NCBI GenBank assembly: GCA_964510585.1
Contig: CAZECW010000106.1
Span: 1-10,948 of the forward strand
Length of the DNA stretch: 10,948 bases
Reading direction: 5' to 3'
Source of the DNA: an uncultured archaeon
Lineage (GTDB): Archaea > Asgardarchaeota > Jordiarchaeia > Jordiarchaeales > Jordiarchaeaceae
In this document: positions 2 to 10,813 of the stretch, piece after piece
How positions within the stretch are numbered: the stretch's first letter is position 1
Layout of the letters: each line of letters starts with the position of its first letter
The notes under the pieces: generated by a model
Databases searched by the model: none
What the model was told of the DNA's origin: nothing
Seen by the model: the letters and a program-made list of their open reading frames with translations, nothing else
Program-made: the position numbers and the translations under genes

Positions 2-547
2 GGCTTCCACGTGCTTGCGCCCTATCCGGGTACTGAGGTTAGGGAGAGGGCTGAGGAGCTGGGGCTAAAAATTCTGCATAATGACTGGTTGAGGTATGAT
101 GCCAACCAGGCGGTTTCAGAAACAAAAGACGTCAGCGCCGATTACATAAACAAGGTAATTAGGGAGTTTAAGGATTCCATAGAAGCAGCTGTGGAAAGGA
201 AGGAGGAACTTAAAAAGCAGGGGCTTCTCAGTAAGAAGGATGAGGAGGAAATCGAGCTTAGGAAGAGAAGATTGGTAGCTTGGCAAATATTGAAGAACGA
301 TTACGTAGAAAGGCACGGTAAATTTTCAGGAGACGGGGATCCAGTTGGACTCCTTACAGAGAAACTATACGCTATAAAAACCGTTTCATCTATTTTAACG
401 AAGGAGGAGCTCGCAGAAGAAATAAGGAAAATGCTTGAGGAAGGTATTCTAAACTATACGCGGAGTGACGGTTCAGTGACTTGGTTCTGGGCCAATATAG
501 GTGGGCGGGAGAAGCTTCAAGCAGGACTCGGGCAAAATGTCAAATAG
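2..547 (+). CDS. Cobalamin-binding (class B) radical SAM protein, C-terminal part only (5' end outside window); paralogue 1
   Basis: Frame is open from base 2 (GFHVLAPYPGTEVRERAEELG...). It aligns colinearly with the C-termini of 679..2286 and 6488..8080: LAP[FY]PGTEVRE, NxWLRYDAN, RRRxLxAWxxLKND, W-x-W near the end. The track's start at 11 is an internal GTG. Confidence 0.9.
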   Translation, partial: GFHVLAPYPGTEVRERAEELGLKILHNDWLRYDANQAVSETKDVSADYINKVIREFKDSIEAAVERKEELKKQGLLSKKDEEEIELRKRRLVAWQILKNDYVERHGKFSGDGDPVGLLTEKLYAIKTVSSILTKEELAEEIRKMLEEGILNYTRSDGSVTWFWANIGGREKLQAGLGQNVK

Positions 548-599
548 CCACATTCCTATTTGGCTTTACAGCAAATTGGAATCCGTTAGATTTGGAGTA

Positions 600-623
600 T
601 TTACGTAAAATTTAAGTACTTAA
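600..623 (+). promoter_or_regulatory. Probable BRE/TATA promoter of radical SAM paralogue 2 (AAAATTTAAGTA, 607-618) overlapped by two palindromes
   Basis: AAAATTTAAGTA matches AAAACTTAAGTA upstream of paralogue 3. Perfect palindromes TTTACGTAAA (600-609) and TTAAGTACTTAA (612-623). Confidence 0.5.
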
Positions 624-678
624 TTGCTATGTTTTTGCGTTAAACTCATTCAAGCTAAAGGTTGTGTGGTTGAGTGAT

Positions 679-2286
679 ATGAGAACCTTGTTGATAAATG
701 TTCCCTATCCTTTCTCAGAGTGTCCAACTCTGCCTCTGGGATTAACTTACTTGGCTGCGGTACTTGAGAAGAATGGCTACGAAGTTCAAATTCTTGACAT
801 GGTTATTTCGAGATTTTCATTAAAGAAGATTAAGGAGAAAATCTTGGAGTTCAAACCAGACATTTGTGGCGCTGGGCCGGTTACTATGAATTATCCCACG
901 GCTCTACGGGCGCTTAAGGTTTGTAAGGAAATGGGTTGTATGACTGTAATAGGTGGGTGTCATGTTACCTTTTGGGATGAGGAATGTTTGACAGAGGCAC
1001 CCTACATCGATGTTGTGGTTAGGAGGGAGGGAGAATACACCTTGCTTGATTTGGTCAAGGGTAGGGACTTCAAAGATATCTTGGGCATAACTTACAGAGA
1101 AGATGGACAAATTGTGGTTAATCCAGACAGGCCTTTCATTCAGAATCTGGATGAGCTACCATTTCCAGCGCGCCATCTTCTTCCCTTGGCGAAGTATCAC
1201 GCCTACAAAACTGGGGCCAGTATGATCACTGCGCGGGGTTGTCCCTACCACTGTATCTTCTGTGTTGGGCATAAAATGGTTGGTTCCAAAGTTCGCTACC
1301 GTAACCCCAAGCTGGTTGTAGACGAAATTGAGGAAATCCTTAGTTTGGGATTCAAGGACATATGCATAGAGGACGACCAGCTGACCATGAATCACAAACA
1401 TGTCTTCGCCATTTGCGACGAGATTATCAGTAGAGGGTTAAAGTTTGATTGGGCTGCGTTCTCCAGATGTGACACTGTTACACCTGAACTTGTGAAAAAG
1501 ATGAGGGAGGCCGGTTGCTACTATTTCTGCTACGGCGTTGAGAGCGGGAACCAAAGGATTCTTGATTTAGCCAGAAAAAGACAGACTCGAGAAAAAATAG
1601 TGAGAGGCGTAAAAATAGCTAAGCAGGGAGGAATTAATGTTCTCGCCTCGTTCATAATGGGGCTTCCTGGAGAAACTCCCCAAACCATGAAGGAATCGCT
1701 GGAGTTTGGAGCTTCACTGAACACATCCTACGGGTACCATATTCTTGCACCGTTCCCAGGAACAGAGGTTAGAGAGAAGGCCAAAGAGTTTGGAATAAGG
1801 ATACTTCACAATAACTGGCTTAGATACGATGCTAACCAGGCAGTTACAGAGAGTGATGAGGTGCCCAAAGAACTCCTAAACAAGGTAGTGGGCGAATTTA
1901 ACGCCGCCATAGAGGAATGCATTAGAGACACTGAGAGACAAGTGGAACAGGGCACTGCTACACCCGACATGGTTGCGGAAATCAACCTGAGGAGAAGACG
2001 CAAACTGGCCTGGCTGCTCCTGAAAAATGACCGCATAGAGAGACACGGGATAACTGAAAACAATGGGGAGGAACCAGTAAAACTCTTAGCAGACAAGATG
2101 CACTCCTTCGGATCCATATCCCGAATTCTCAAAAGAGACCAAGTGGAAACAGTGCTAGGACAGTTTGTAAAGGAAGGCTTACTGGAATACAAGGCGGATG
2201 ACAACAAAATACAGTGGAACTGGGTGGACATTGGGGCAAAGGTGAGAAAAAAACAAATCCCAGAAATACAAAAAATGAAGACTTAA
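679..2286 (+). CDS. Cobalamin-binding (class B) radical SAM protein, paralogue 2 (535 aa from ATG 679)
   Basis: N-terminal B12-binding domain (PLGLTYLAAVLEKNGYEVQILD, IGGCHVTF, VVRREGEYT). Radical SAM triad RGCPYHCIFC (CxxxCxxC), then EDD, YGVESGN, FIMGLPGET and APFPGT motifs. ATG 679 follows GAGTGA and gives MRTLLIN, matching paralogue 3; the track's GTG 664 is less likely. Confidence 0.93.
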   Translation: MRTLLINVPYPFSECPTLPLGLTYLAAVLEKNGYEVQILDMVISRFSLKKIKEKILEFKPDICGAGPVTMNYPTALRALKVCKEMGCMTVIGGCHVTFWDEECLTEAPYIDVVVRREGEYTLLDLVKGRDFKDILGITYREDGQIVVNPDRPFIQNLDELPFPARHLLPLAKYHAYKTGASMITARGCPYHCIFCVGHKMVGSKVRYRNPKLVVDEIEEILSLGFKDICIEDDQLTMNHKHVFAICDEIISRGLKFDWAAFSRCDTVTPELVKKMREAGCYYFCYGVESGNQRILDLARKRQTREKIVRGVKIAKQGGINVLASFIMGLPGETPQTMKESLEFGASLNTSYGYHILAPFPGTEVREKAKEFGIRILHNNWLRYDANQAVTESDEVPKELLNKVVGEFNAAIEECIRDTERQVEQGTATPDMVAEINLRRRRKLAWLLLKNDRIERHGITENNGEEPVKLLADKMHSFGSISRILKRDQVETVLGQFVKEGLLEYKADDNKIQWNWVDIGAKVRKKQIPEIQKMKT

Positions 2287-2354
2287 GATAACAAAAATTA
2301 TTCTGCCCTTAAATTTTCATTTTTCCAGTGATTTTTTCTTTGTCCTTGTTTGTT
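2287..2354. terminator. Convergent intergenic region with T-tracts, probable archaeal-type terminators for both strands
   Basis: The + strand carries TTTTCATTTTT and ATTTTTTCTTTGTCCTTGTTTGTT. The - strand carries a T5 tract (forward ACAAAAATTA, about 2291-2300). It lies between converging stop codons. Confidence 0.45.
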
Positions 2355-3509
2355 TCAATCCTGCGCGATGTAGTAGAGCGAGGGGTCGTCTTTTTTCTCT
2401 TCTTCGCTTCTGAAGAGTCTGGGTATTGCGGGGTCAAAATCGTTTTCCATGAAGTAGGGTACATACTTCTTCATTGTTCTTTCTGTGAGGTTCCAGTCTA
2501 TTTTGTCCGTGATTCCTACAAAGTTGGTATACCGGGCATACCCATAGCAGTAGGCAAATGCTCCCGCGATTAGGCGCTGTCTTTTATCCCATTCCGAGAA
2601 GCGCATATAGAGTTCCGCCTGGGCGCTCTGGGCAAACTCATTAAATGCTTCTAATACGTCCAAGTCTAAAGGCTCCACTTTGTCTCCTTTTCGTGTGAAT
2701 AGAGCTACTCCCGTAATTTTTTCTGTGTAGTCTACTGGTTCTGTGGTCATGGTTGAAAAATCGTCGAATTTGGCTTTTACACCCTTTAATCGATAGGCGC
2801 AGGCGATGTTGCTGTAGGGTGCTTTGGCTTCTGTTGCTGACCAGGGAAAGTGTGGTTTTCCTCCATCATAAATGTGTAATATTTCGCTGAAGACTAGGAT
2901 TTCATCTTTACCTATTTTGTAGGGTCCGTGGTCGCAGAGTTTGGCTCTTGCCTCACACTCGTCTAAAAACGCGTAGACCTCTAGGTTAGTCATAACCCTT
3001 TTTATCTTGGCTCCTTCCTCGGGTGTTATGTCTATGATTTGTTCTTTAACCCAATCTATGTCGGATTGATTCAGGGCCAAGTTCTCCCAGTTTGAATCAT
3101 AAACTGTTAGTTTTCCTCCTGGAAAATATGAGGATGCCAACCTTTTCCAGAAGTCGAGTATGAAGGCAGTCTGCTCCCTCTTCTCCTTGGGCTCCGATCT
3201 GGGGTCTCCCTTGTTGGCGAAAATCTCCCCCATTCTGCCACACATGTAGTAGAGTGGAATGTAAAATATGGTCATGGCGTGTAGCTCTGAGAGTATCTTT
3301 CTGCTCTCCCTACCCATTCTTTCTGGAGTGGTCTTCTCTGATACCTTCTTTAATATGTTGAAGAGTATGTCATAACTGTTATAAAAAGAGACGCAAATAT
3401 AGGCGGTTACTGGGAAGAGCTGTGACTCTAGTAGGCCTCTGCTGGTAACTTGGTAATCCACGACTCTTGAAATGTGGGGTATAAGCTTGTTAGCTTCTGC
3501 AATACTCAT
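2355..3509 (-). CDS. Uncharacterised ~384-aa protein A, paralogue of 4987..6159
   Basis: Long ORF with GGTGGAAGGTG RBS upstream of the ATG. Shares blocks with 4987..6159: ESQLFxVTAY, GRM, FxLDFWxRxASxYF, KxKRVMxxL, AFLxxCExRA, GPYxIGxDEILxF, FTRxGDKxEPxxLD, FAxxAQxELY. No function recognised. Confidence 0.88.
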   Translation of the reverse strand: MSIAEANKLIPHISRVVDYQVTSRGLLESQLFPVTAYICVSFYNSYDILFNILKKVSEKTTPERMGRESRKILSELHAMTIFYIPLYYMCGRMGEIFANKGDPRSEPKEKREQTAFILDFWKRLASSYFPGGKLTVYDSNWENLALNQSDIDWVKEQIIDITPEEGAKIKRVMTNLEVYAFLDECEARAKLCDHGPYKIGKDEILVFSEILHIYDGGKPHFPWSATEAKAPYSNIACAYRLKGVKAKFDDFSTMTTEPVDYTEKITGVALFTRKGDKVEPLDLDVLEAFNEFAQSAQAELYMRFSEWDKRQRLIAGAFAYCYGYARYTNFVGITDKIDWNLTERTMKKYVPYFMENDFDPAIPRLFRSEEEKKDDPSLYYIAQD

Positions 3510-3603
3510 TAAGAAACACCTTCCACCTTTTTATTTTTCAATTTTTATGATTGGTTTTGTCCATTCCTCAAAACTTAAATTTGTATCTGTTTTTGTTCCT
3601 GTT

Positions 3604-3969
3604 TTATTCTTCTAAAATGTATAGTTCTCCTTTGGAGCCTCCGAGGGCGACGATTTTTGCCTTTTTTCCGTTTAATTCGCCGTTGTATCGAATTTCTGTT
3701 CCCATTAGCCCCGGTATGCCGAATTCTCTTGTCACTATGGCTAAATGTGCCCCTAGGCCTCCTGATAGGCACACTACTCCGGATACGCGTGAAAGTACTG
3801 GTGCTAGGGTGGTGGTTCCCGCGTCTTGGACCACTGGTATTTTTCCTTGCGGGCCTGATTTGAGGAGGGAAACCACATCCTGAACCGTTTTTATTACCAC
3901 CAGTTGGCCCTCGGCATTCTTTTCACAGCTTATCATTCCTTCAGCAATTTTTTTGTAGCTCATACTCAT
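3604..3969 (-). CDS. Stand-alone PEP-utilizing-enzyme mobile (swivel) domain with putative phosphorylatable His75
   Basis: Motif VSGVVCLSGGLGAHLAIVTREFGIPGLMG closely resembles the GGxxxH-x-AI[VI]xRExGIP phosphohistidine signature of PEP synthase, PPDK and PTS enzyme I. The His codon is at 3747-3745. The protein is only 121 aa; the start could be 3969 or 3963, with GAGG upstream. Confidence 0.88.
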   Translation of the reverse strand: MSMSYKKIAEGMISCEKNAEGQLVVIKTVQDVVSLLKSGPQGKIPVVQDAGTTTLAPVLSRVSGVVCLSGGLGAHLAIVTREFGIPGLMGTEIRYNGELNGKKAKIVALGGSKGELYILEE

Positions 3970-4001
3970 CCCTCGTAATACTACCTATAGAAAAACATAC
4001 T

Positions 4002-4022
4002 CTTATAAATCAATTGGAAGAA
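4002..4022 (-). promoter_or_regulatory. Promoter for swivel gene and protein A: TTCTTCCAATTGATTTATAAG, including TATA box TTTATAAG
   Basis: TATA box lies about 33 bp upstream of ATG 3969. It is 19/21 identical to 6211..6231. Confidence 0.65.
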
Positions 4023-4087
4023 TTCATACTTCAATAACTGATTTTTTTGTTGCGGTTAGGCAAATCTAGTGGTTTATTTTTTCACTT

Positions 4088-4990
4088 TTAAACCTTGGTG
4101 GTTACTAGGTATTCTGAGATGCCGTAGCCTTTTTCCTGTTCTCCTCGGACTTGGAACTCTGAAAAGTTTTCGTAAATATCTGTGCGGGCCCCTTCTTTAG
4201 ATTGGCGTGGCGGATAAACTATTCCATACACTTTTTTTGAAATAATTGTCCTAGACACTCCATTTTCGTCTTTGGCGATGTAGGTAGATTCTCTGGGTGT
4301 TTTTCCGTCTCTCTCGTATTTGGTTTCGATTTTTGCATCTAATACTTCAACGTTGCCTTCACTGTTTGATACGAATCCGCTGATTTCGGTTTTTTTACCA
4401 ATTGTTAGCCTTATTACGTTTATGGCGTAGTTATCGAATTGGGCTTGCATCCAGTCCCACTTTGTAATTTTTGAGTAGTCTCTCAGGCCCCAAGAGTGGT
4501 CGCGGTGCCCGTAGCTGTCAACTTTTATGGCGGCTCCATCAGGGAATCTGATTACCCCATTCACTTTACAGCTTTGCTCATAATGCTCCTGTTCAAGAAC
4601 ATCCTTTACGTATGATTTTTTGGGGTCGAATCTAAATACTGGGAATCTGCCAAGAAACGTGAAGTCCATGTTCACCTTTTCCGTTTCTAGGAAAACGTTC
4701 CATCTTTTTTGGGGCTTTACCAGGTCAAAGGTCAACTTTCCATCGCTTATACTTTTCAGTTTGCCGCTCACCCCTGTGGAGTTCATATAACCGTCAACTT
4801 TTCCATCAACCACATATGTTGCGAGGAAGTCTGTTCTCCCATTGTTGGGATAAGTGGATATGTAGAAAACCCCGCAGACCTTACTTTTACCGTCCATGTA
4901 TGTAAAATACCAGGATTCCTTCCAATCAATTCTCGGAGGATAGTCGTGGGGATACTCCTCCCAGTCCTCAATTGTTCTACCTAAACTCAT
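4088..4990 (-). CDS. CrtC/AttH/tocopherol-cyclase-like beta-barrel protein (resembles DUF7064/DUF7065-type proteins), 300 aa
   Basis: Motifs WKESWYF, HYEQ and GHRDHSWGLR in a beta-rich, aromatic-rich sequence. ATG at 4990 overlaps the TGA of the upstream gene (ATGA) and follows GGTGG, so the track's start at 5080 is probably too long. The family label is recalled, not searched. Confidence 0.7.
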   Translation of the reverse strand: MSLGRTIEDWEEYPHDYPPRIDWKESWYFTYMDGKSKVCGVFYISTYPNNGRTDFLATYVVDGKVDGYMNSTGVSGKLKSISDGKLTFDLVKPQKRWNVFLETEKVNMDFTFLGRFPVFRFDPKKSYVKDVLEQEHYEQSCKVNGVIRFPDGAAIKVDSYGHRDHSWGLRDYSKITKWDWMQAQFDNYAINVIRLTIGKKTEISGFVSNSEGNVEVLDAKIETKYERDGKTPRESTYIAKDENGVSRTIISKKVYGIVYPPRQSKEGARTDIYENFSEFQVRGEQEKGYGISEYLVTTKV

Positions 4991-6159
4991 TTTTCCACCA
5001 TCCAGTAGAATGTGGGGTCCCTTGCCCACTCCTCCTTTGGTCTGAAGATTCTTGCCCATGAGGGATGCATAATTTTCCACTCATTCATAACTTTGGGTAA
5101 CCATTTTTCTCTTGTTTCCTCAGTTATACCAAATTTGAACTTGTTTGTTATTCCCGCCAAGTCTGTGAACACGAAAAGGTAGGTTGTGAAAACTTGGGCC
5201 CCGGAGAGAATCTTCATTTCTTCTGGCCACTCAGCAAATTTTAGGTAAAGCTCGCTTTGCGCGTCTGTTGCAAATTGGTTCAGTGGATCAAGCATGTCCA
5301 GCTCCACGGGTTCTATCTTGTCGCCTCTACGGGTAAAAATTGCCACCTTACGAATGTTATTGGTGTAATCTTCAGGTTTAATGAACATTGTTCCGTAGTC
5401 CGTAAACTCTGCAGATTCGATTCCCTTAAGAGTTAAAGCGAAACACACATTGGGCAATGGAGATTTAGCATCTAGGTCACCCCACTCAAATTTGAGGTTT
5501 GTTCCATCCCAAAGAGGCGAGAACTCCCTGAATATCAATATTTCGTCCTCACCTATCCTGTAAGGCCCCATTTCATGTATGGAAGCTCTACACTCACAAT
5601 AGTAGAGAAAAGCAGTTAACTGCAGCTGAGCCATAACCCTCTTCAACTTGGAAACCTTTTCCCTACCCAGCTCTACGAGGTTCTCCTTAACCAATCTGAG
5701 TATGGAGCCCGGAAGTATGTTTATTCTGAAACGGTTATCATCCGCAAATAGGTTCCCGTCAAAGTAAGCACTGGCCATCCTCTGCCAGAAATCAAGCATG
5801 AAGTTAACTTCCTTCCTCCTCTCCTCAGGCTCATTCTCCGGTCCTCCCAACTCCCATAATGTCTGCATCCTCCCTATCATATATAGCCCAATAAATGCCC
5901 ACATTCCCAAAGTATTGGGCACCATTGCAAGCGTCTTGCTTCTCCTACCTATTTCAGCCGGGTCAATATGCTTTGCTAACTCCCTCATAATATTGTACTG
6001 GTACCCGTTGTAAAGCTGGAAACAAGCCAGACAATTATAGGCAGTAACATTAAACAGCTGTGACTCTACAAGCGTCCTTTCCGAGAGAAGCCTCGTAGAC
6101 ACATCACTAACTCTACTTATTAATTGATTAACTCTATCAATGTTAAGATCACCCAACAT
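4987..6159 (-). CDS. Uncharacterised ~390-aa protein B, paralogue of 2355..3509
   Basis: Long ORF with GGAGGG RBS (6171-6166). Shares extensive colinear blocks with protein A. No function recognised. Confidence 0.88.
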   Translation of the reverse strand: MLGDLNIDRVNQLISRVSDVSTRLLSERTLVESQLFNVTAYNCLACFQLYNGYQYNIMRELAKHIDPAEIGRRSKTLAMVPNTLGMWAFIGLYMIGRMQTLWELGGPENEPEERRKEVNFMLDFWQRMASAYFDGNLFADDNRFRINILPGSILRLVKENLVELGREKVSKLKRVMAQLQLTAFLYYCECRASIHEMGPYRIGEDEILIFREFSPLWDGTNLKFEWGDLDAKSPLPNVCFALTLKGIESAEFTDYGTMFIKPEDYTNNIRKVAIFTRRGDKIEPVELDMLDPLNQFATDAQSELYLKFAEWPEEMKILSGAQVFTTYLFVFTDLAGITNKFKFGITEETREKWLPKVMNEWKIMHPSWARIFRPKEEWARDPTFYWMVEK

Positions 6160-6210
6160 GGAAAACCCTCCAAAAACAATTTTTTAAGTTTTTAATTATC
6201 TCTCTCTTAA

Positions 6211-6231
6211 CTTATAAACTAATTGGAAGAA
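6211..6231 (-). promoter_or_regulatory. Promoter for protein B and beta-barrel gene: TTCTTCCAATTAGTTTATAAG, including TATA box TTTATAAG
   Basis: TATA box lies about 52 bp upstream of ATG 6159, leaving room for an SD-containing leader. It is 19/21 identical to 4002..4022. Confidence 0.65.
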
Positions 6232-6451
6232 ACGTTTTATCGCATAATTGCCTAGTTTTTTCCTTATTGGGAGGGAGCAAAATTTTCTCGAACCACATTT
6301 TAAACCCTTTTTCTGCGGATTTCAGTCACCATACAAATACAGTAAACAAACGCAATATTGTTCAAAAACAGCAGGAGGAAGAAAGGAAACCAGAGAAAAA
6401 CCTACAACCATTAAAAGGGGGGTTAGTAATTTATCAAACGTTATTTTGGGC

Positions 6452-6463
6452 AAAACTTAAGTA
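6452..6463 (+). promoter_or_regulatory. BRE/TATA promoter of radical SAM paralogue 3 (AAAACTTAAGTA), probably leaderless transcript
   Basis: Ends 24 bp before ATG 6488, the usual TATA-to-start spacing for leaderless archaeal mRNAs. No SD is visible. Matches 607-618 at 11/12 positions. Confidence 0.55.
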
Positions 6464-6487
6464 TTAGTATTTATGGTTGTACCACTT

Positions 6488-8080
6488 ATGTCAACAAGAA
6501 CGCTTCTAATAAATACACCGTATCCCTTCACGGAGTGCCCCACAATTCCATTGGGGTTGACTTATCTGGCGGCGGTTCTTGAGGACAGGGGGTTTGATGT
6601 GGATATACTGGACATGGTGGTCTACAAGTTCTCCAGAGAAAAGATTATTGAAAAAATTAGGGAGTACAAGCCGGACATTGTGGGAGCGGGCTCCGTTACC
6701 ATGAATTATCCACACGCTAAACGCATACTTCAAATCGCAAAGAATGAAGGCGCAACTACAATCATTGGAGGCCCACATGCTACCTTCGCGGACAGGGAGG
6801 TTCTCAGTGAAGCACCCTGGATTGACATAGTAGTGAGAAGAGAGGGCGAGTACACACTACTTGACATTGTCAGGGGCAGAGACCTAAAAGACGTTAAAGG
6901 CATAACTTATAGGGAGGATGGAGAAATAGTCCGAAACCCGGACCGCGAATTACTAATGAATCTGGATGAGCTACCCTTCCCCGCCAGACACTTAGTACCC
7001 CTATCCAAATACATTGCCTATAAAACCGGCTGCAGTATGGTGACCGGTAGAGGTTGCCCCAACAGGTGCATTTTTTGCGTGGGGCCCAAGATGACCAGTA
7101 GAAAGATGAGGTTCCGCAACCCTAAACTCTGCGTGGACGAGATGGAGGAAATTCTTGATTATGGTTTTGATGAAATAATTGTGGAGGACGACACCTTCAC
7201 TATAAACAAGAACCACGTCTTCAGCATTTGTGATGAGATCATAAGCCGGGGACTAAAGTTTAAGTGGAGTGCTAACGCCCGCGTTAACACAGTAACCAAA
7301 GAGATGCTTCAAAAAATGTACGAAGCGGGATGCATATTTATCCAGTTTGGCGTGGAGAGTGGAAACCCCGAAATTTTGAGAACGTGTAAAAAGGGAATAA
7401 CACTTGAGCAGGTACGGAAAGCCACCCAAATAGCCAAGGAAGTTGGTATAGGAGTCCTATCCTCCTTCATAATAGGATTGCCTGGGGAAACAGAAGAAAC
7501 CATAAAGGAAACCATGGAATTCGCGCGGAGTCTGGGAACCTATTACGGCTACCACGTTTTAGCTCCCTTTCCCGGAACAGAGGTCAGAGAAAGGGCAGAC
7601 GAACTGGGAGTAAAAATCCTTACAAACAACTGGTTAAGGTACGACGCCAACCGTGCAGTAACCGAAACAGAAGGAGTCTCAGCAGAATACATGAACAAAA
7701 TTGTTAGGGACTTCTACAAGGGAGTGACCAAATACGTAAAGAACCAAGTGAAAGCCGAAGAGGCCGGAACCGCCAGCGAAGCCGATTTAAAAGATGTAGC
7801 AATCAGGAGAAGAAGATCCCTAGCATGGCACCTGCTTAAAAACGATTTAATAGAAACATATGGCAAATTCAAGGACGAAGCAGAAGATCCCGTAAAAAAG
7901 CTCGCAGACAACCTATACAGTTATCGGGGAATCAAAAACAACTTCACAAAACAATACATAGATAAAGAGATTGCCCAAATGGTCAAAGAAAAACTGTTCA
8001 CCTACAAAAACGAAAACGGCACCATCGTGTGGCAGTGGAAAATGCCGGAAAAACCCATAAGAGCAAAAACAAAAGAATAA
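6488..8080 (+). CDS. Cobalamin-binding (class B) radical SAM protein, paralogue 3 (530 aa from ATG 6488)
   Basis: Motifs PLGLTYLAAVLE, IGGPHATF, RGCPNRCIFC (CxxxCxxC), EDD, FGVESGN, FIIGLPGET and APFPGT. Colinear with paralogue 2. ATG 6488 (MSTRTLLIN) is preferred over 6473, which is too close to the TATA box. Confidence 0.93.
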   Translation: MSTRTLLINTPYPFTECPTIPLGLTYLAAVLEDRGFDVDILDMVVYKFSREKIIEKIREYKPDIVGAGSVTMNYPHAKRILQIAKNEGATTIIGGPHATFADREVLSEAPWIDIVVRREGEYTLLDIVRGRDLKDVKGITYREDGEIVRNPDRELLMNLDELPFPARHLVPLSKYIAYKTGCSMVTGRGCPNRCIFCVGPKMTSRKMRFRNPKLCVDEMEEILDYGFDEIIVEDDTFTINKNHVFSICDEIISRGLKFKWSANARVNTVTKEMLQKMYEAGCIFIQFGVESGNPEILRTCKKGITLEQVRKATQIAKEVGIGVLSSFIIGLPGETEETIKETMEFARSLGTYYGYHVLAPFPGTEVRERADELGVKILTNNWLRYDANRAVTETEGVSAEYMNKIVRDFYKGVTKYVKNQVKAEEAGTASEADLKDVAIRRRRSLAWHLLKNDLIETYGKFKDEAEDPVKKLADNLYSYRGIKNNFTKQYIDKEIAQMVKEKLFTYKNENGTIVWQWKMPEKPIRAKTKE

Positions 8081-8194: not shown

Positions 8195-8854
8195 ATGGCT
8201 AGCAATGGGCTACGCCACGTAGTAGAACAACTATTTAGCAAAAATAGAAAGATACGTGAAAGGGCGGCTGAAACTCTGGGAAGATACGCTGAAGGCGAAA
8301 TAGTCGATGAGAACGCATTAGACCCCCTCATAAAACTTCTAGACGATAAACATCACAGAGTCAGGAGAACCGCAGCCTACGCCCTTGGAAGATACGCAGA
8401 GCAAGGATTAGTAAAAGAATCAGCTCTAGACAAACTCGTGGCACTAATGCAGGATAAAAATGTTAACGTCCGCCAAAACGTCACCTTCGCCCTACTAATG
8501 TACTCCTACCAAAACTTTATGGACCCAAGAGCCCTCAAATTTCTAGTAAAAATGCTTGAGGAATCCGACTTTCTAGCAAGCGGCGAAGCCGCCTACACCC
8601 TAGCCAAATACGCAGAAAAAGGACTGGTGGACGAGTCAGCCCTCAAACCCCTAACCAAACTCCTAGAATCCAAAGACCAACTAGCTCGAGCCAACGCAGC
8701 CTACGCCCTAGCCAAATACGCAGAAAAAGGATTCCTAAACCCACAAGCAGTAAAAATACTAGTCAAACTTTTAGAAGACAAAGACTACCGAGTCCGAGAA
8801 AACTCCACCATGGCCATGAACGAATACATAAAGAACGGAATCACAATAAACTAA
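8195..8854 (+). CDS. HEAT/PBS-lyase-like alpha-solenoid repeat protein, six 36-aa repeats
   Basis: Consensus approximately xxxALxxLxxLLxDKxxxVRxxAAYALxxYAExGLV, repeated six times without gaps from Ala2 to Thr217. Confidence 0.9.
   Translation: MASNGLRHVVEQLFSKNRKIRERAAETLGRYAEGEIVDENALDPLIKLLDDKHHRVRRTAAYALGRYAEQGLVKESALDKLVALMQDKNVNVRQNVTFALLMYSYQNFMDPRALKFLVKMLEESDFLASGEAAYTLAKYAEKGLVDESALKPLTKLLESKDQLARANAAYALAKYAEKGFLNPQAVKILVKLLEDKDYRVRENSTMAMNEYIKNGITIN
8591..8731 (+). repeat. Intragenic direct repeat underlying HEAT units 4 and 5
   Basis: GCCTACACCCTAGCCAAATACGCAGAAAAAGGA (8591) and GCCTACGCCCTAGCCAAATACGCAGAAAAAGGA (8699) are 32/33 identical and 108 bp apart. GGAAGATACGC at 8279 and 8387 is also 108 bp apart. 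Confidence 0.9.
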
Positions 8855-9316
8855 TTATTAAAAATAATCACCACCAACCAACTACTAATTTATAAACTCA
8901 AAGTGATGCAAAAACCACATTTTCACACACGGACACATGCTTCCCCCTCTAAGACTACCGTAAAAGGGACTTGTAGAATCTTCTTCAAAACCAAAACTTA
9001 CGGGATTTGGATAGAATGCTCCCACATAACAAAAAGTTATATGTTTTACACAATTTTGCAACGCTTGGATCTACGCCACTAATTTTTGAAAATTTTCTGA
9101 CTTGGCTCCATATTTTTGATTGACTTGTTCTGCCCTATTTTTTTTGGGTGAATCTGGCTGCCTGCCCCGCATCTTCCCTCTCCCCTATACATAATTGTGA
9201 TAAAAAAGAGGAACACATGCTCTAAAGTTTCTTTAAAACTGGGAGCGTTATTCAAAAAGTAGATCTCTACAAAAAGGGGTGCAACTAAACATTAGGGTGA
9301 ACTTGCATCGAAGCTG

Positions 9317-9377
9317 GAAAAAGGTTTATAATAGAGAAAGATTAGAGACATATTCAAATTTATGGAGGAGTAGGAGA
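9317..9377 (+). promoter_or_regulatory. BRE/TATA (GAAAAAGG-TTTATAAT, 9317-9332) and SD (GGAGG 9364-9368, AGGAGA 9372-9377) for the acylase gene
   Basis: Near-canonical archaeal BRE plus TATA about 48 bp upstream of GTG 9380, with purine-rich SD elements before the start. Confidence 0.6.
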
Positions 9378-9379
9378 GA

Positions 9380-10813
9380 GTGCAAAGAAAGAAAATGTTA
9401 TCACTATCTATAGCCGCTCTCTTCGTCAGTATGCTACTATTGGCAGGCTTCACCATAGCCGCGTCAAACCCAGCAACGTATGGGTCTCTAAACTTGCCAG
9501 CAGTCCAAGAAAGCACAGCTAAGCAAACCGGGAGAAATGTAACCATAATTTGGGACATTTACGGTATCCCACACATTAATGGAATAACCCAAGCAGACAC
9601 ATTCTTCGGCCACGGATACGCCCAAGCAGTAGACGGCATCGAACTACTAATGCTAAACCTCATCACCGCAAAAGGCAGACTATCAGCAACATTCGGATAC
9701 GACAAATACAATAACACTTGGTATCCCGGCTACAAGCTCAGAGCCCAAGGAATAATTAGAGAAGGTGAACCGAATAACGCCATGAGTGACGGTTTACTTT
9801 GGAAATTAAAGATTCCAGTAAGCCACTCCCAATACCTCAAAATAAATCAAACTATGAGAGAAATAATGATAGAACCCTTCGCCGCAGGCATCAACTATTA
9901 CATCTATGAACACTGGGACACCCTACCCTCATGGATAAAGCAAAACGCACCAGTAACGGGAGAAGACATAGCCTCAATGGCCGCCCTCATCAACTTTCTA
10001 TTTGCAGAAGACATTGTAAGCTGGCTAACCGCAGAGGCCACACTAAAGGCTTTGAACTGGGACGTCGAAACATACCTACTACAACACAATTTAGGACCTG
10101 TTCCAATGCCCCCCTCAGTAGGATCTTCCGGCCTGCTATATAAGGGGAGTAACGAGTATCTTGTGAATGGAAGTCTTTCTAGCACTGGTTACCCTATTTT
10201 GGGTGCTGATCCACACTTGGAATGGGATGGAATAACCCAGTGGCACGAGGCGCACCTAATGGCGCCAGCAGAGGGCACACTACCCGAATTAAACGTGCAT
10301 GGCGTAATCTTTTATGGACTGCCATTCATAGGAATTGGGCACAACGAGTACCTTGCCTGGATGTCAACAGTTAACCAGCCCGACACCATGGACGTTTGGA
10401 TTGAAAAACTAGACTCTACCAACACCAAGTACTACTACGATGGTTCTTGGGTTCCCCTCACAAAAGAAGTAATAAAACTGCCAGTACTAGTTCCCGGAAT
10501 AGGTATAATGATTCAAGAACTACCCACATACTATTCTCACCACGGAGTCCTATTAACCATAAATGAGACAGCACACTACGCCCTTGCAGTAAACTATTCC
10601 ACAAGTGGTCAATGGACCGGCGTAGAACAGTTCTACCTCATGAACACTGCACAAAACATAACACAGTGGAAAGAAGCCATGTCCCTACTTGGAGTAGGCA
10701 TATTCAACTACATGGTGGCAACCAAATACAATGAAACCTTCTATGTTTGGAACGCAATGTGCCCACAAAGAAATGACATGTGGAACTGGAACTTGGCTGT
10801 ACCAGGGCTATAG
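9380..10813 (+). CDS. Secreted penicillin-acylase-family Ntn hydrolase, apparently C-terminally truncated (possible pseudogene or split gene)
   Basis: Signal peptide (MQRKK plus hydrophobic stretch). Alpha-chain motif WDIYGIPHI..FFGHGYAQAVD. Autoproteolysis and nucleophile site G|SNEY (Ser257, 10148-10150), followed by GYPILGADPHL and WHEAHL. Eight N-x-S/T sequons. The beta chain is only 221 aa. Confidence 0.85.
   Translation: MQRKKMLSLSIAALFVSMLLLAGFTIAASNPATYGSLNLPAVQESTAKQTGRNVTIIWDIYGIPHINGITQADTFFGHGYAQAVDGIELLMLNLITAKGRLSATFGYDKYNNTWYPGYKLRAQGIIREGEPNNAMSDGLLWKLKIPVSHSQYLKINQTMREIMIEPFAAGINYYIYEHWDTLPSWIKQNAPVTGEDIASMAALINFLFAEDIVSWLTAEATLKALNWDVETYLLQHNLGPVPMPPSVGSSGLLYKGSNEYLVNGSLSSTGYPILGADPHLEWDGITQWHEAHLMAPAEGTLPELNVHGVIFYGLPFIGIGHNEYLAWMSTVNQPDTMDVWIEKLDSTNTKYYYDGSWVPLTKEVIKLPVLVPGIGIMIQELPTYYSHHGVLLTINETAHYALAVNYSTSGQWTGVEQFYLMNTAQNITQWKEAMSLLGVGIFNYMVATKYNETFYVWNAMCPQRNDMWNWNLAVPGL

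Follow-up and report, generated by a model that had tools for sequence, protein, structure and literature searches.

Two groups of described enzymes form the background for the locus considered here, which occupies the whole of contig CAZECW010000106.1 from an uncultured Asgard archaeon (10,948 nucleotides and nine genes, referred to below as the window) and in which a block of four genes, called A, barrel, swivel and B, is bracketed by radical S-adenosylmethionine (SAM) genes, called rSAM1, rSAM2 and rSAM3. The first group comprises the dikinases and their relatives, namely phosphoenolpyruvate (PEP) synthase, pyruvate phosphate dikinase and rifampicin phosphotransferase, in which an ATP-grasp domain (PPDK_N) is combined with a mobile domain that carries an invariant histidine, and in which a third, substrate-side component, either a PEP-utilizers_C TIM barrel or a rifampicin-binding domain, completes a three-part logic. 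The second group comprises the class B radical SAM enzymes, in which a B12-binding domain is followed by the radical SAM core. HpnJ and BchE have this architecture, and GrsA/GrsB, Gmm, HpnP and HpnR belong to the same enzyme class as the radical SAM enzymes of the window. HpnJ has been proposed to contract the sugar ring that the glycosyltransferase HpnI put on a hopanoid, while GrsA and GrsB, which are classed among the B12-binding radical SAM enzymes, are paralogues that act stepwise on one lipid (PMC13459092).

The original prediction was that the block and its three radical SAM genes may be the seven genes of one pathway. The present analysis favours a different interpretation, which we hold with moderate confidence: the window probably juxtaposes two functionally separate modules that have come to lie side by side in one Jordarchaeia/Freyarchaeia genus. 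The first module, made up of A, barrel, swivel and B in two transcription units with a common 21-bp promoter motif, would be the local form of a conserved Asgard phosphotransfer system of split, dikinase-like type. The second, made up of a radical SAM array (four genes in tandem plus rSAM3) and a HEAT-repeat protein, would have arisen by expansion of a class B radical SAM clade within this genus alone. This interpretation is favoured by the independent distributions of the block and the clade, by the home of the clade among genes for family 4 glycosyltransferases (GT4) and methyltransferases, by the radical SAM tree, and by the promoter motif, which is confined to the block.

Independent distributions of the block and the radical SAM clade

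The two sets of genes were surveyed in 400 Asgard genomes from 85 genera. The A/B family is present in 113 of the genomes and 29 of the genera, and the radical SAM clade, which is recognized by a C-terminal extension, in 10 of the genomes; the two overlap only in the six genomes of the window's own genus, all of which carry the clade in multiple copies that always adjoin the block. In the sister family the clade is found as a single copy in four of five genomes, and A/B in none of the five. A scan of 62 genome loci with a homologue of A, all of them Asgard except two labelled Thermoplasmata, found the radical SAM clade in five, every one of which belongs to the genus and has an A at least 82% identical; at the A loci outside the genus the count is 0/57. 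When the survey is turned around, one of 80 metagenome loci of the radical SAM clade contains the block (L089), and that locus also comes from the genus (A 85% identical).

Co-occurrence of the A/B block and the radical SAM clade is thus found only inside one genus, and outside that genus the result is the one that the original prediction had itself named as refuting the seven-gene pathway. Because A is 82-96% identical within the genus, shared synteny there is expected by descent, and synteny that is confined to close relatives does not imply functional coupling of the block and the radical SAM genes. Three loci outside the genus (L043, L071 and L082) that have a class B radical SAM gene near A were considered as instances of co-occurrence and rejected: these genes reach only 120-173 bits, lack the C-terminal extension and lie 4-8 kb away, and three of 57 loci is close to a rough chance estimate for so abundant a gene class.

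The 21-bp motif TTCTTCCAATTRRTTTATAAG precedes both units of the block (A-barrel and swivel-B). A scan of the 3.78-Mb genome found the pattern at just two sites, both of them block promoters, against 0.01 occurrences expected in the window, and placed no copy at the radical SAM genes; an alignment of five radical SAM upstream regions gave no clear common promoter motif. The radical SAM genes and the block lie on opposite strands, and because of this opposite orientation they are not co-transcribed. In keeping with the earlier statement, no described pathway with this gene set was found, and literature searches gave no paper for DUF7064, nor for Freyarchaeia in combination with radical SAM.

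A split phosphotransfer module in Asgard archaea

The A/barrel/swivel/B block is a real, conserved module. Across the 62 loci with A, the neighbours include a barrel gene in 61, a swivel gene in 53 and a PPDK_N ATP-grasp gene in 40, and the usual layout sets a PPDK_N-swivel pair beside an A-barrel pair; some Loki-type loci have two A genes in tandem. The module resembles the dikinases and rifampicin phosphotransferase in its mobile domain with an invariant histidine, in the PPDK_N partner that most of its loci contain, and in the presence of a third, substrate-side component. It differs from them in that all of its parts are separate genes, in that the third part belongs to the A/B family, for which there is no solved-structure match, and in that a DUF7065/7064 protein is a near-obligate fourth partner. 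The window's genus departs further still, having no ATP-grasp gene in the module and having a second A paralogue.

The part of the original prediction that described the block as phosphotransfer-like, with a phosphohistidine carrier, is borne out by a swivel that exceeds the PF00391 cut-off and whose His75, in the sequence GAHLAIVTRE (motif G-x-H-x-A-I-x-x-R-E), is invariant in eight aligned free and A-fused swivels. A and B are paralogues (38% identity, E 3e-98), and neither matches a Pfam or NCBIfam family. B retains all invariant columns of the alignment A2, and it occupies the place that the PPDK_N ATP-grasp gene has in most related loci. A word-index search with A returned only Asgard homologues, and an exhaustive profile search returned 321 representative clusters. 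In four bacterial clusters (P0040, P0066, P0125 and P0157), and in one AlphaFold DB (AFDB) entry, an N-terminal PEP-utilizer swivel is fused to the A domain, and A is the putative partner domain of the swivel. The context of the P0125 fusion is uninformative, consisting of a 5.5-kb contig with short-chain dehydrogenase/reductase and enoyl-CoA hydratase genes upstream. An AF2 model of A with a mean predicted local distance difference test score (pLDDT) of 85 gave nothing convincing in a Foldseek search of the PDB (best E 0.22), in a wide VIA-align search (best Z 4.6) or in the ESM Atlas (TM-scores of at most 0.30), and these failed matches are no proof of a new fold.

The barrel was originally described as a hydrophobic-ligand barrel. 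Language-model features do group it with DUF7064/7065, tocopherol cyclase and AttH, but this grouping is a lead and not an assignment. The protein scores 71.5 bits against the NCBIfam model Rv3169_fam, for which the cut-off is 150, and a PDB sequence search gave no match at E <=1. Its ATG overlaps the stop codon of A as ATGA (start at 4990), and the barrel is translationally coupled to A.

No protein of the window matches PPDK_N, and profile scans found no stand-alone PPDK_N in the genus, one complete genome included. The sole PPDK_N of the window's genome, like that of the complete congeneric genome, lies in a full-length PEP-synthase-like gene elsewhere. Nor does any window protein match PF02896, the PEP-utilizers_C TIM barrel, which among the loci was seen only in L005. 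The swivel-A fusions, the invariant histidine, the ATGA coupling and the absence of a stand-alone PPDK_N from the genus are sequence features that together argue for the following predicted scheme. By analogy with pyruvate phosphate dikinase, PEP synthase and rifampicin phosphotransferase, a donor domain would phosphorylate the invariant histidine of the free swivel, the swivel would pass the phosphoryl group to a site on an A-type protein, and the DUF7065/7064 barrel would bind or process a possibly hydrophobic substrate. The part of the donor would fall, in most Asgard loci, to the stand-alone PPDK_N ATP-grasp protein. In the window's genus the PPDK_N gene is missing and B stands in its place, which leaves B, A and the housekeeping PEP synthase as candidate donors there.

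Several loci and genomes show further features of the module and its relatives. The PEP-synthase-like gene is interrupted in two genomes (G000:C56:8872-9836 and G117:C1:1660684-1662003): in the window's genome a break near profile position 114 leaves frames of 141 and 677 aa, and in the complete genome (G117:C1) there is one in-frame TAA. The interruption could be a conserved split, a frameshift or a case of recoding; stop-codon recoding has been reported for Jordarchaeia (PMC9723677). Hermod/Thor-type loci (L001, L003, L006, L007 and L027-L035) have a PAS-repeat protein of about 900-1200 aa between PPDK_N and A and a dual-specificity phosphatase after the barrel, additions which hint at a role in signalling or regulated phosphorylation. 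The Lokiarchaeal locus L005 (7410-12553) has its stand-alone PEP-utilizers_C TIM barrel beside the DUF7064 gene and, after A, a 411-aa protein with a weak GCS2 match; these extra parts indicate that the module can pair with different donor or acceptor parts.

The radical SAM clade and its array

That the genes flanking the block are class B radical SAM paralogues is confirmed by matches of rSAM2 and rSAM3 to PF02310 and PF04055 above the cut-offs. The two proteins are 58% identical, have the CxxxCxxC cluster motifs CPYHCIFC and CPNRCIFC, and are predicted class B (cobalamin-binding) radical SAM enzymes. The best-scoring named model is HpnJ (TIGR03471), which rSAM3 matches at 230.6 bits and rSAM2 at 191.5 bits, the cut-off being 577.6; for rSAM3, BchE (TIGR02026) gives 200.4 bits against 481, and HpnR (TIGR04367) 125.4 bits against 650. 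Among solved structures, the one most closely related to rSAM3 is AprD4, a radical SAM enzyme that modifies a sugar. Apart from its domain order, HpnJ resembles the window enzymes in its connection with glycosyltransferases, given that it works downstream of HpnI (PMC13459092) and that relatives of the window enzymes neighbour glycosyltransferase genes. It differs in that the window clade has a C-terminal extension of its own (approximately the last 120-180 residues), which lies outside the HpnJ model, and in that neither the window nor the loci examined showed any hopanoid genes.

The extension had been noted as a distinctive feature shared by the three paralogues. It is indeed common to rSAM1, rSAM2 and rSAM3, but it is not peculiar to them: it marks a wide, mostly bacterial clade of at least 99 protein clusters, most of the source-named ones being bacterial (Chloroflexota, Thermodesulfobacteriota and Desulfobacterales), and of at least 498 metagenome stretches. 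Modelled alone (pLDDT 85.5), it is predicted to form a long helix followed by a winged-helix-like domain.

Outside the genus, genes for transferases of two kinds, GT4 glycosyltransferases and class I SAM methyltransferases, recur beside this clade. A SAM methyltransferase gene is present in 38 of the 80 metagenome loci and a GT4 gene in 20 of the 80; for the 39 loci that span 8 kb or more, the corresponding counts are 22 and 16. In Jordarchaeales the clade member lies within a six-gene cluster of the form GT4-GT4-methyltransferase-rSAM-methyltransferase-methyltransferase. On one bacterial contig it is preceded by GT4, methyltransferase and hexapeptide transferase genes and followed by another methyltransferase gene, and on another the order is methyltransferase, rSAM, methyltransferase, GT4, flippase; one further locus outside the genus has no telling context. 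Examples with Pfam annotation of the GT4 and methyltransferase genes are L010/L011, L012 and L021. In the Jordarchaeales cluster and its bacterial counterparts the radical SAM gene is single and lies inside the transferase cluster, whereas in the window's genus it is gone from the cluster and has five copies next to the phosphotransfer module.

When a distant paralogue is used as the root, a quick maximum-likelihood tree places the Jordarchaeia/archaeal radical SAM proteins in one clade, with a Shimodaira-Hasegawa-like approximate likelihood ratio test (SH-aLRT) value of 96, nested among bacterial sequences (98). The copies of the tandem array, rSAM2 included, form a clade of their own (SH-aLRT 99), each with an orthologue in Freyarchaeum deiterrae, and rSAM3 is sister (SH-aLRT 80) to the single-copy radical SAM protein of the Jordarchaeales GT4/methyltransferase cluster. 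The latter is also the closest relative of rSAM3 outside the genus, at 45% identity and with the same extension. The window's genome keeps an orthologous GT4-GT4-methyltransferase-methyltransferase cluster (L084, G000:C55, 435-4639; 63% and 51% identity), in which there is only a 223-bp gap (3661-3884) at the place where the sister family has the radical SAM gene. The gene context and the distant relatives suggest that the ancestral enzyme may have C-methylated or rearranged a sugar or glycolipid by radical chemistry, and the copies in the window probably act on glycoconjugates or diversified derivatives of them, not on the product of the first module.

The original count of three radical SAM paralogues bracketing the block is right as to their presence and position, but it is a lower bound, since contig overlaps and contiguous congeneric assemblies give five. 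Further copies in the window's genome lie on C109, where a full gene stands between a C-terminal and an N-terminal fragment, and on C93, which closes with an N-terminal fragment after ilvD. The last 141 bases of C93 recur exactly as the opening 141 of C109 and of C106 (the window), and C109 in turn ends in 126 bases with which C106 and C109 itself begin. Because of these exact overlaps of 126-141 bases at the contig ends, the assembly is taken to have broken at a repeat inside the radical SAM paralogues, and the contig path C93-C109-C106 would then give four tandem genes. Contiguous assemblies from the same genus (G118:C389, L024 and L089) have the same layout of four tandem radical SAM genes, then B, swivel, barrel and A, then rSAM3. 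It is most likely that rSAM1 is the third gene of the four-gene array, of which rSAM2 is the last, converging on B. In Freyarchaeum deiterrae (L009) the segment rSAM3-HEAT-amidase lies at the far end of the array, away from A, and the array still adjoins B.

At the boundary of this rearrangement L009 has a TnpB/IS605 OrfB-like gene (8725-9903) between the tandem array and rSAM3. The same locus has an additional 205-aa open reading frame of unknown family between barrel and swivel (917-1534); in L089 the corresponding interval is a gap of about 1 kb. A further class B radical SAM gene (L019, G000:C94, 5723-8336) directly follows a SPASM-domain radical SAM gene; its product, at 463 aa, is shorter than rSAM3 (535 aa) and shares 46% identity with it over the core, and the two genes form a separate radical SAM pair elsewhere in the genome.

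The features of the window are collected in Table 1. The seven genes lie where they were originally placed, with the correction that the barrel, on the minus strand, starts at 4990 and not at 5080. An Rfam scan of the window gave no match. The HEAT gene adjoins rSAM3 in L008, L009, L022, L023 and L024, and rSAM3, HEAT and amidase are kept together in L008, L009 and L024. The amidase aligns to residues 1-415 of a 786-aa Freyarchaeum deiterrae homologue and then reaches a stop, and its frame is not continued in the last 135 bases of the contig (to 10948); the truncation reflects either disruption of the gene or an artefact of the contig end. The public runs listed as containing the contig's sequence are all hot-spring or sediment DNA runs, with no RNA run among them. 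Near-identical proteins and loci bear source names that indicate Candidatus Jordarchaeia/Freyarchaeota.

Table 1. Genes and promoter-like motifs of the window (G000:C106), with positions on contig CAZECW010000106.1.
Feature	Position	Strand	Remarks
rSAM1, C-terminal 181 aa only	2..547	+	aligns to rSAM3 residues 359-523; 5' part cut off by contig start
rSAM2, 540 aa, predicted class B (B12-binding) radical SAM	664..2286	+	PF02310 64.5 bits, PF04055 81.9 bits, CxxxCxxC
B, 384 aa, paralogue of A	2355..3509	-	no Pfam/NCBIfam family
swivel, 121 aa, free-standing PEP-utilizer mobile domain, predicted phosphohistidine carrier	3604..3969	-	PF00391 35.3 bits (cut-off 23.1)
21-bp promoter/operator-like motif, copy 1, including TATA-like TTTATAAG	4002..4022	-	upstream of swivel-B unit
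barrel, 300 aa, DUF7065/DUF7064	4088..4990	-	PF23213 55.3 bits (cut-off 27), PF23212 30.9 bits (cut-off 24.7)
A, 390 aa, founding member of unnamed family	4987..6159	-	putative swivel partner domain
21-bp promoter/operator-like motif, copy 2	6211..6231	-	upstream of A-barrel unit
rSAM3, 535 aa, predicted class B radical SAM, divergent from A	6473..8080	+	PF02310 87.6 bits, PF04055 109.4 bits
HEAT/PBS-lyase-type repeat protein, 219 aa	8195..8854	+	PF13646 99 bits; conserved neighbour downstream of rSAM3
penicillin-amidase (N-terminal nucleophile hydrolase), hydrophobic N-terminal segment, truncated	9380..10813	+	PF01804 237 bits

One pathway or two modules

Several observations weigh against the separation of the locus into two modules. 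All six genomes of the genus, and the additional contigs examined, have the array abutting the block, and the array-B junction survives the inversion in Freyarchaeum deiterrae. The genus also combines three derived traits on the same branch, having lost PPDK_N from the block and gained both B and the expanded radical SAM array, so that a joint innovation is conceivable. A single lipid pathway would also be consistent with two likenesses, that of the barrel to tocopherol cyclase and AttH and that of the radical SAM enzymes to class B enzymes that modify lipids; for paralogues acting stepwise on one lipid, GrsA/GrsB would be the precedent (PMC13459092). Every named radical SAM equivalog model, moreover, is far under its cut-off for the window enzymes, and, unlike the gene content, the distributions, the fusions and the motif, which are observed, the chemistry attributed to the genes is argued throughout from distant relatives. 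These observations could be accommodated by a single pathway restricted to the genus, in which a radical SAM gene left the GT4/methyltransferase cluster, was recruited to the phosphotransfer module and was duplicated there; the barrel would hold a hydrophobic or hydroxylated substrate, A and B would phosphorylate it via the swivel, and five regiospecific radical SAM enzymes would modify several of its carbons. We nevertheless consider such a pathway doubtful, in view of the complete separation of the two gene sets outside the genus, the opposite orientation and consequent absence of co-transcription, the restriction of the unique promoter motif to the block, the displacement of rSAM3 from A in Freyarchaeum deiterrae, and the fact that descent alone explains the synteny at the observed identities of A. 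The fullest form of the proposal, in which a swivel system with a novel fold lost its ATP-grasp protein, gained a second A-type subunit, and recruited and multiplied a glycan-type radical SAM enzyme to give a new pathway in which a hydrophobic substrate bound by the barrel is phosphorylated and undergoes alkylation or rearrangement at as many as five positions, is likewise doubtful.

Two other readings concern the radical SAM genes and leave the block unrelated or aside. The enzymes might be maturases of ribosomally synthesized and post-translationally modified peptides (RiPPs), with the winged-helix-like end serving as a leader-peptide recognition element and the amidase trimming the product. 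Roughly the final 90 residues of the extension do model as winged-helix-like (pLDDT about 90), their best VIA-align matches all being winged-helix domains, ApyD, a RiPP enzyme, is among the best NCBIfam matches (197 bits), and a peptide-bond hydrolase lies downstream; but the Z values of 5-6 are weak and in the range of common arrangements, the matches listed include neither PqqD nor the structure of another RiPP recognition element, the ApyD cut-off is 750 bits, no precursor-like small gene was identified, and the recurrent neighbours of the clade are GT4 and methyltransferase genes rather than genes of peptide pathways, all of which makes this reading very improbable. It is least likely of all that the array consists mostly of redundant or decaying duplicates produced by unequal recombination, with no separate function for each copy. 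Exact repeats of 126-141 bases between the paralogues do break the assembly, and the arrangement varies within the genus (three or four tandem copies, an inversion, TnpB beside the array). The copies examined, however, are all full-length open frames with CxxxCxxC intact and no internal stops, and because the paralogues are 56-59% identical to rSAM3 and each has a Freyarchaeum deiterrae orthologue, they are old and maintained.

Under the preferred interpretation, that of two separate modules, the seven-gene pathway is probably not a unit, and its parts are of interest separately. A, the barrel, the swivel and usually PPDK_N make up a widespread and undescribed four-component Asgard module, whose A component some bacteria fuse to the swivel, and this module points to a new acceptor branch of the enzyme logic of PEP synthase and the dikinases. 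The radical SAM genes belong to an uncharacterized class B clade that recurs among GT4 and methyltransferase genes and is expanded five-fold in one archaeal genus, and the clade is a candidate for new radical chemistry of glycans or glycolipids in the closest prokaryotic relatives of eukaryotes.

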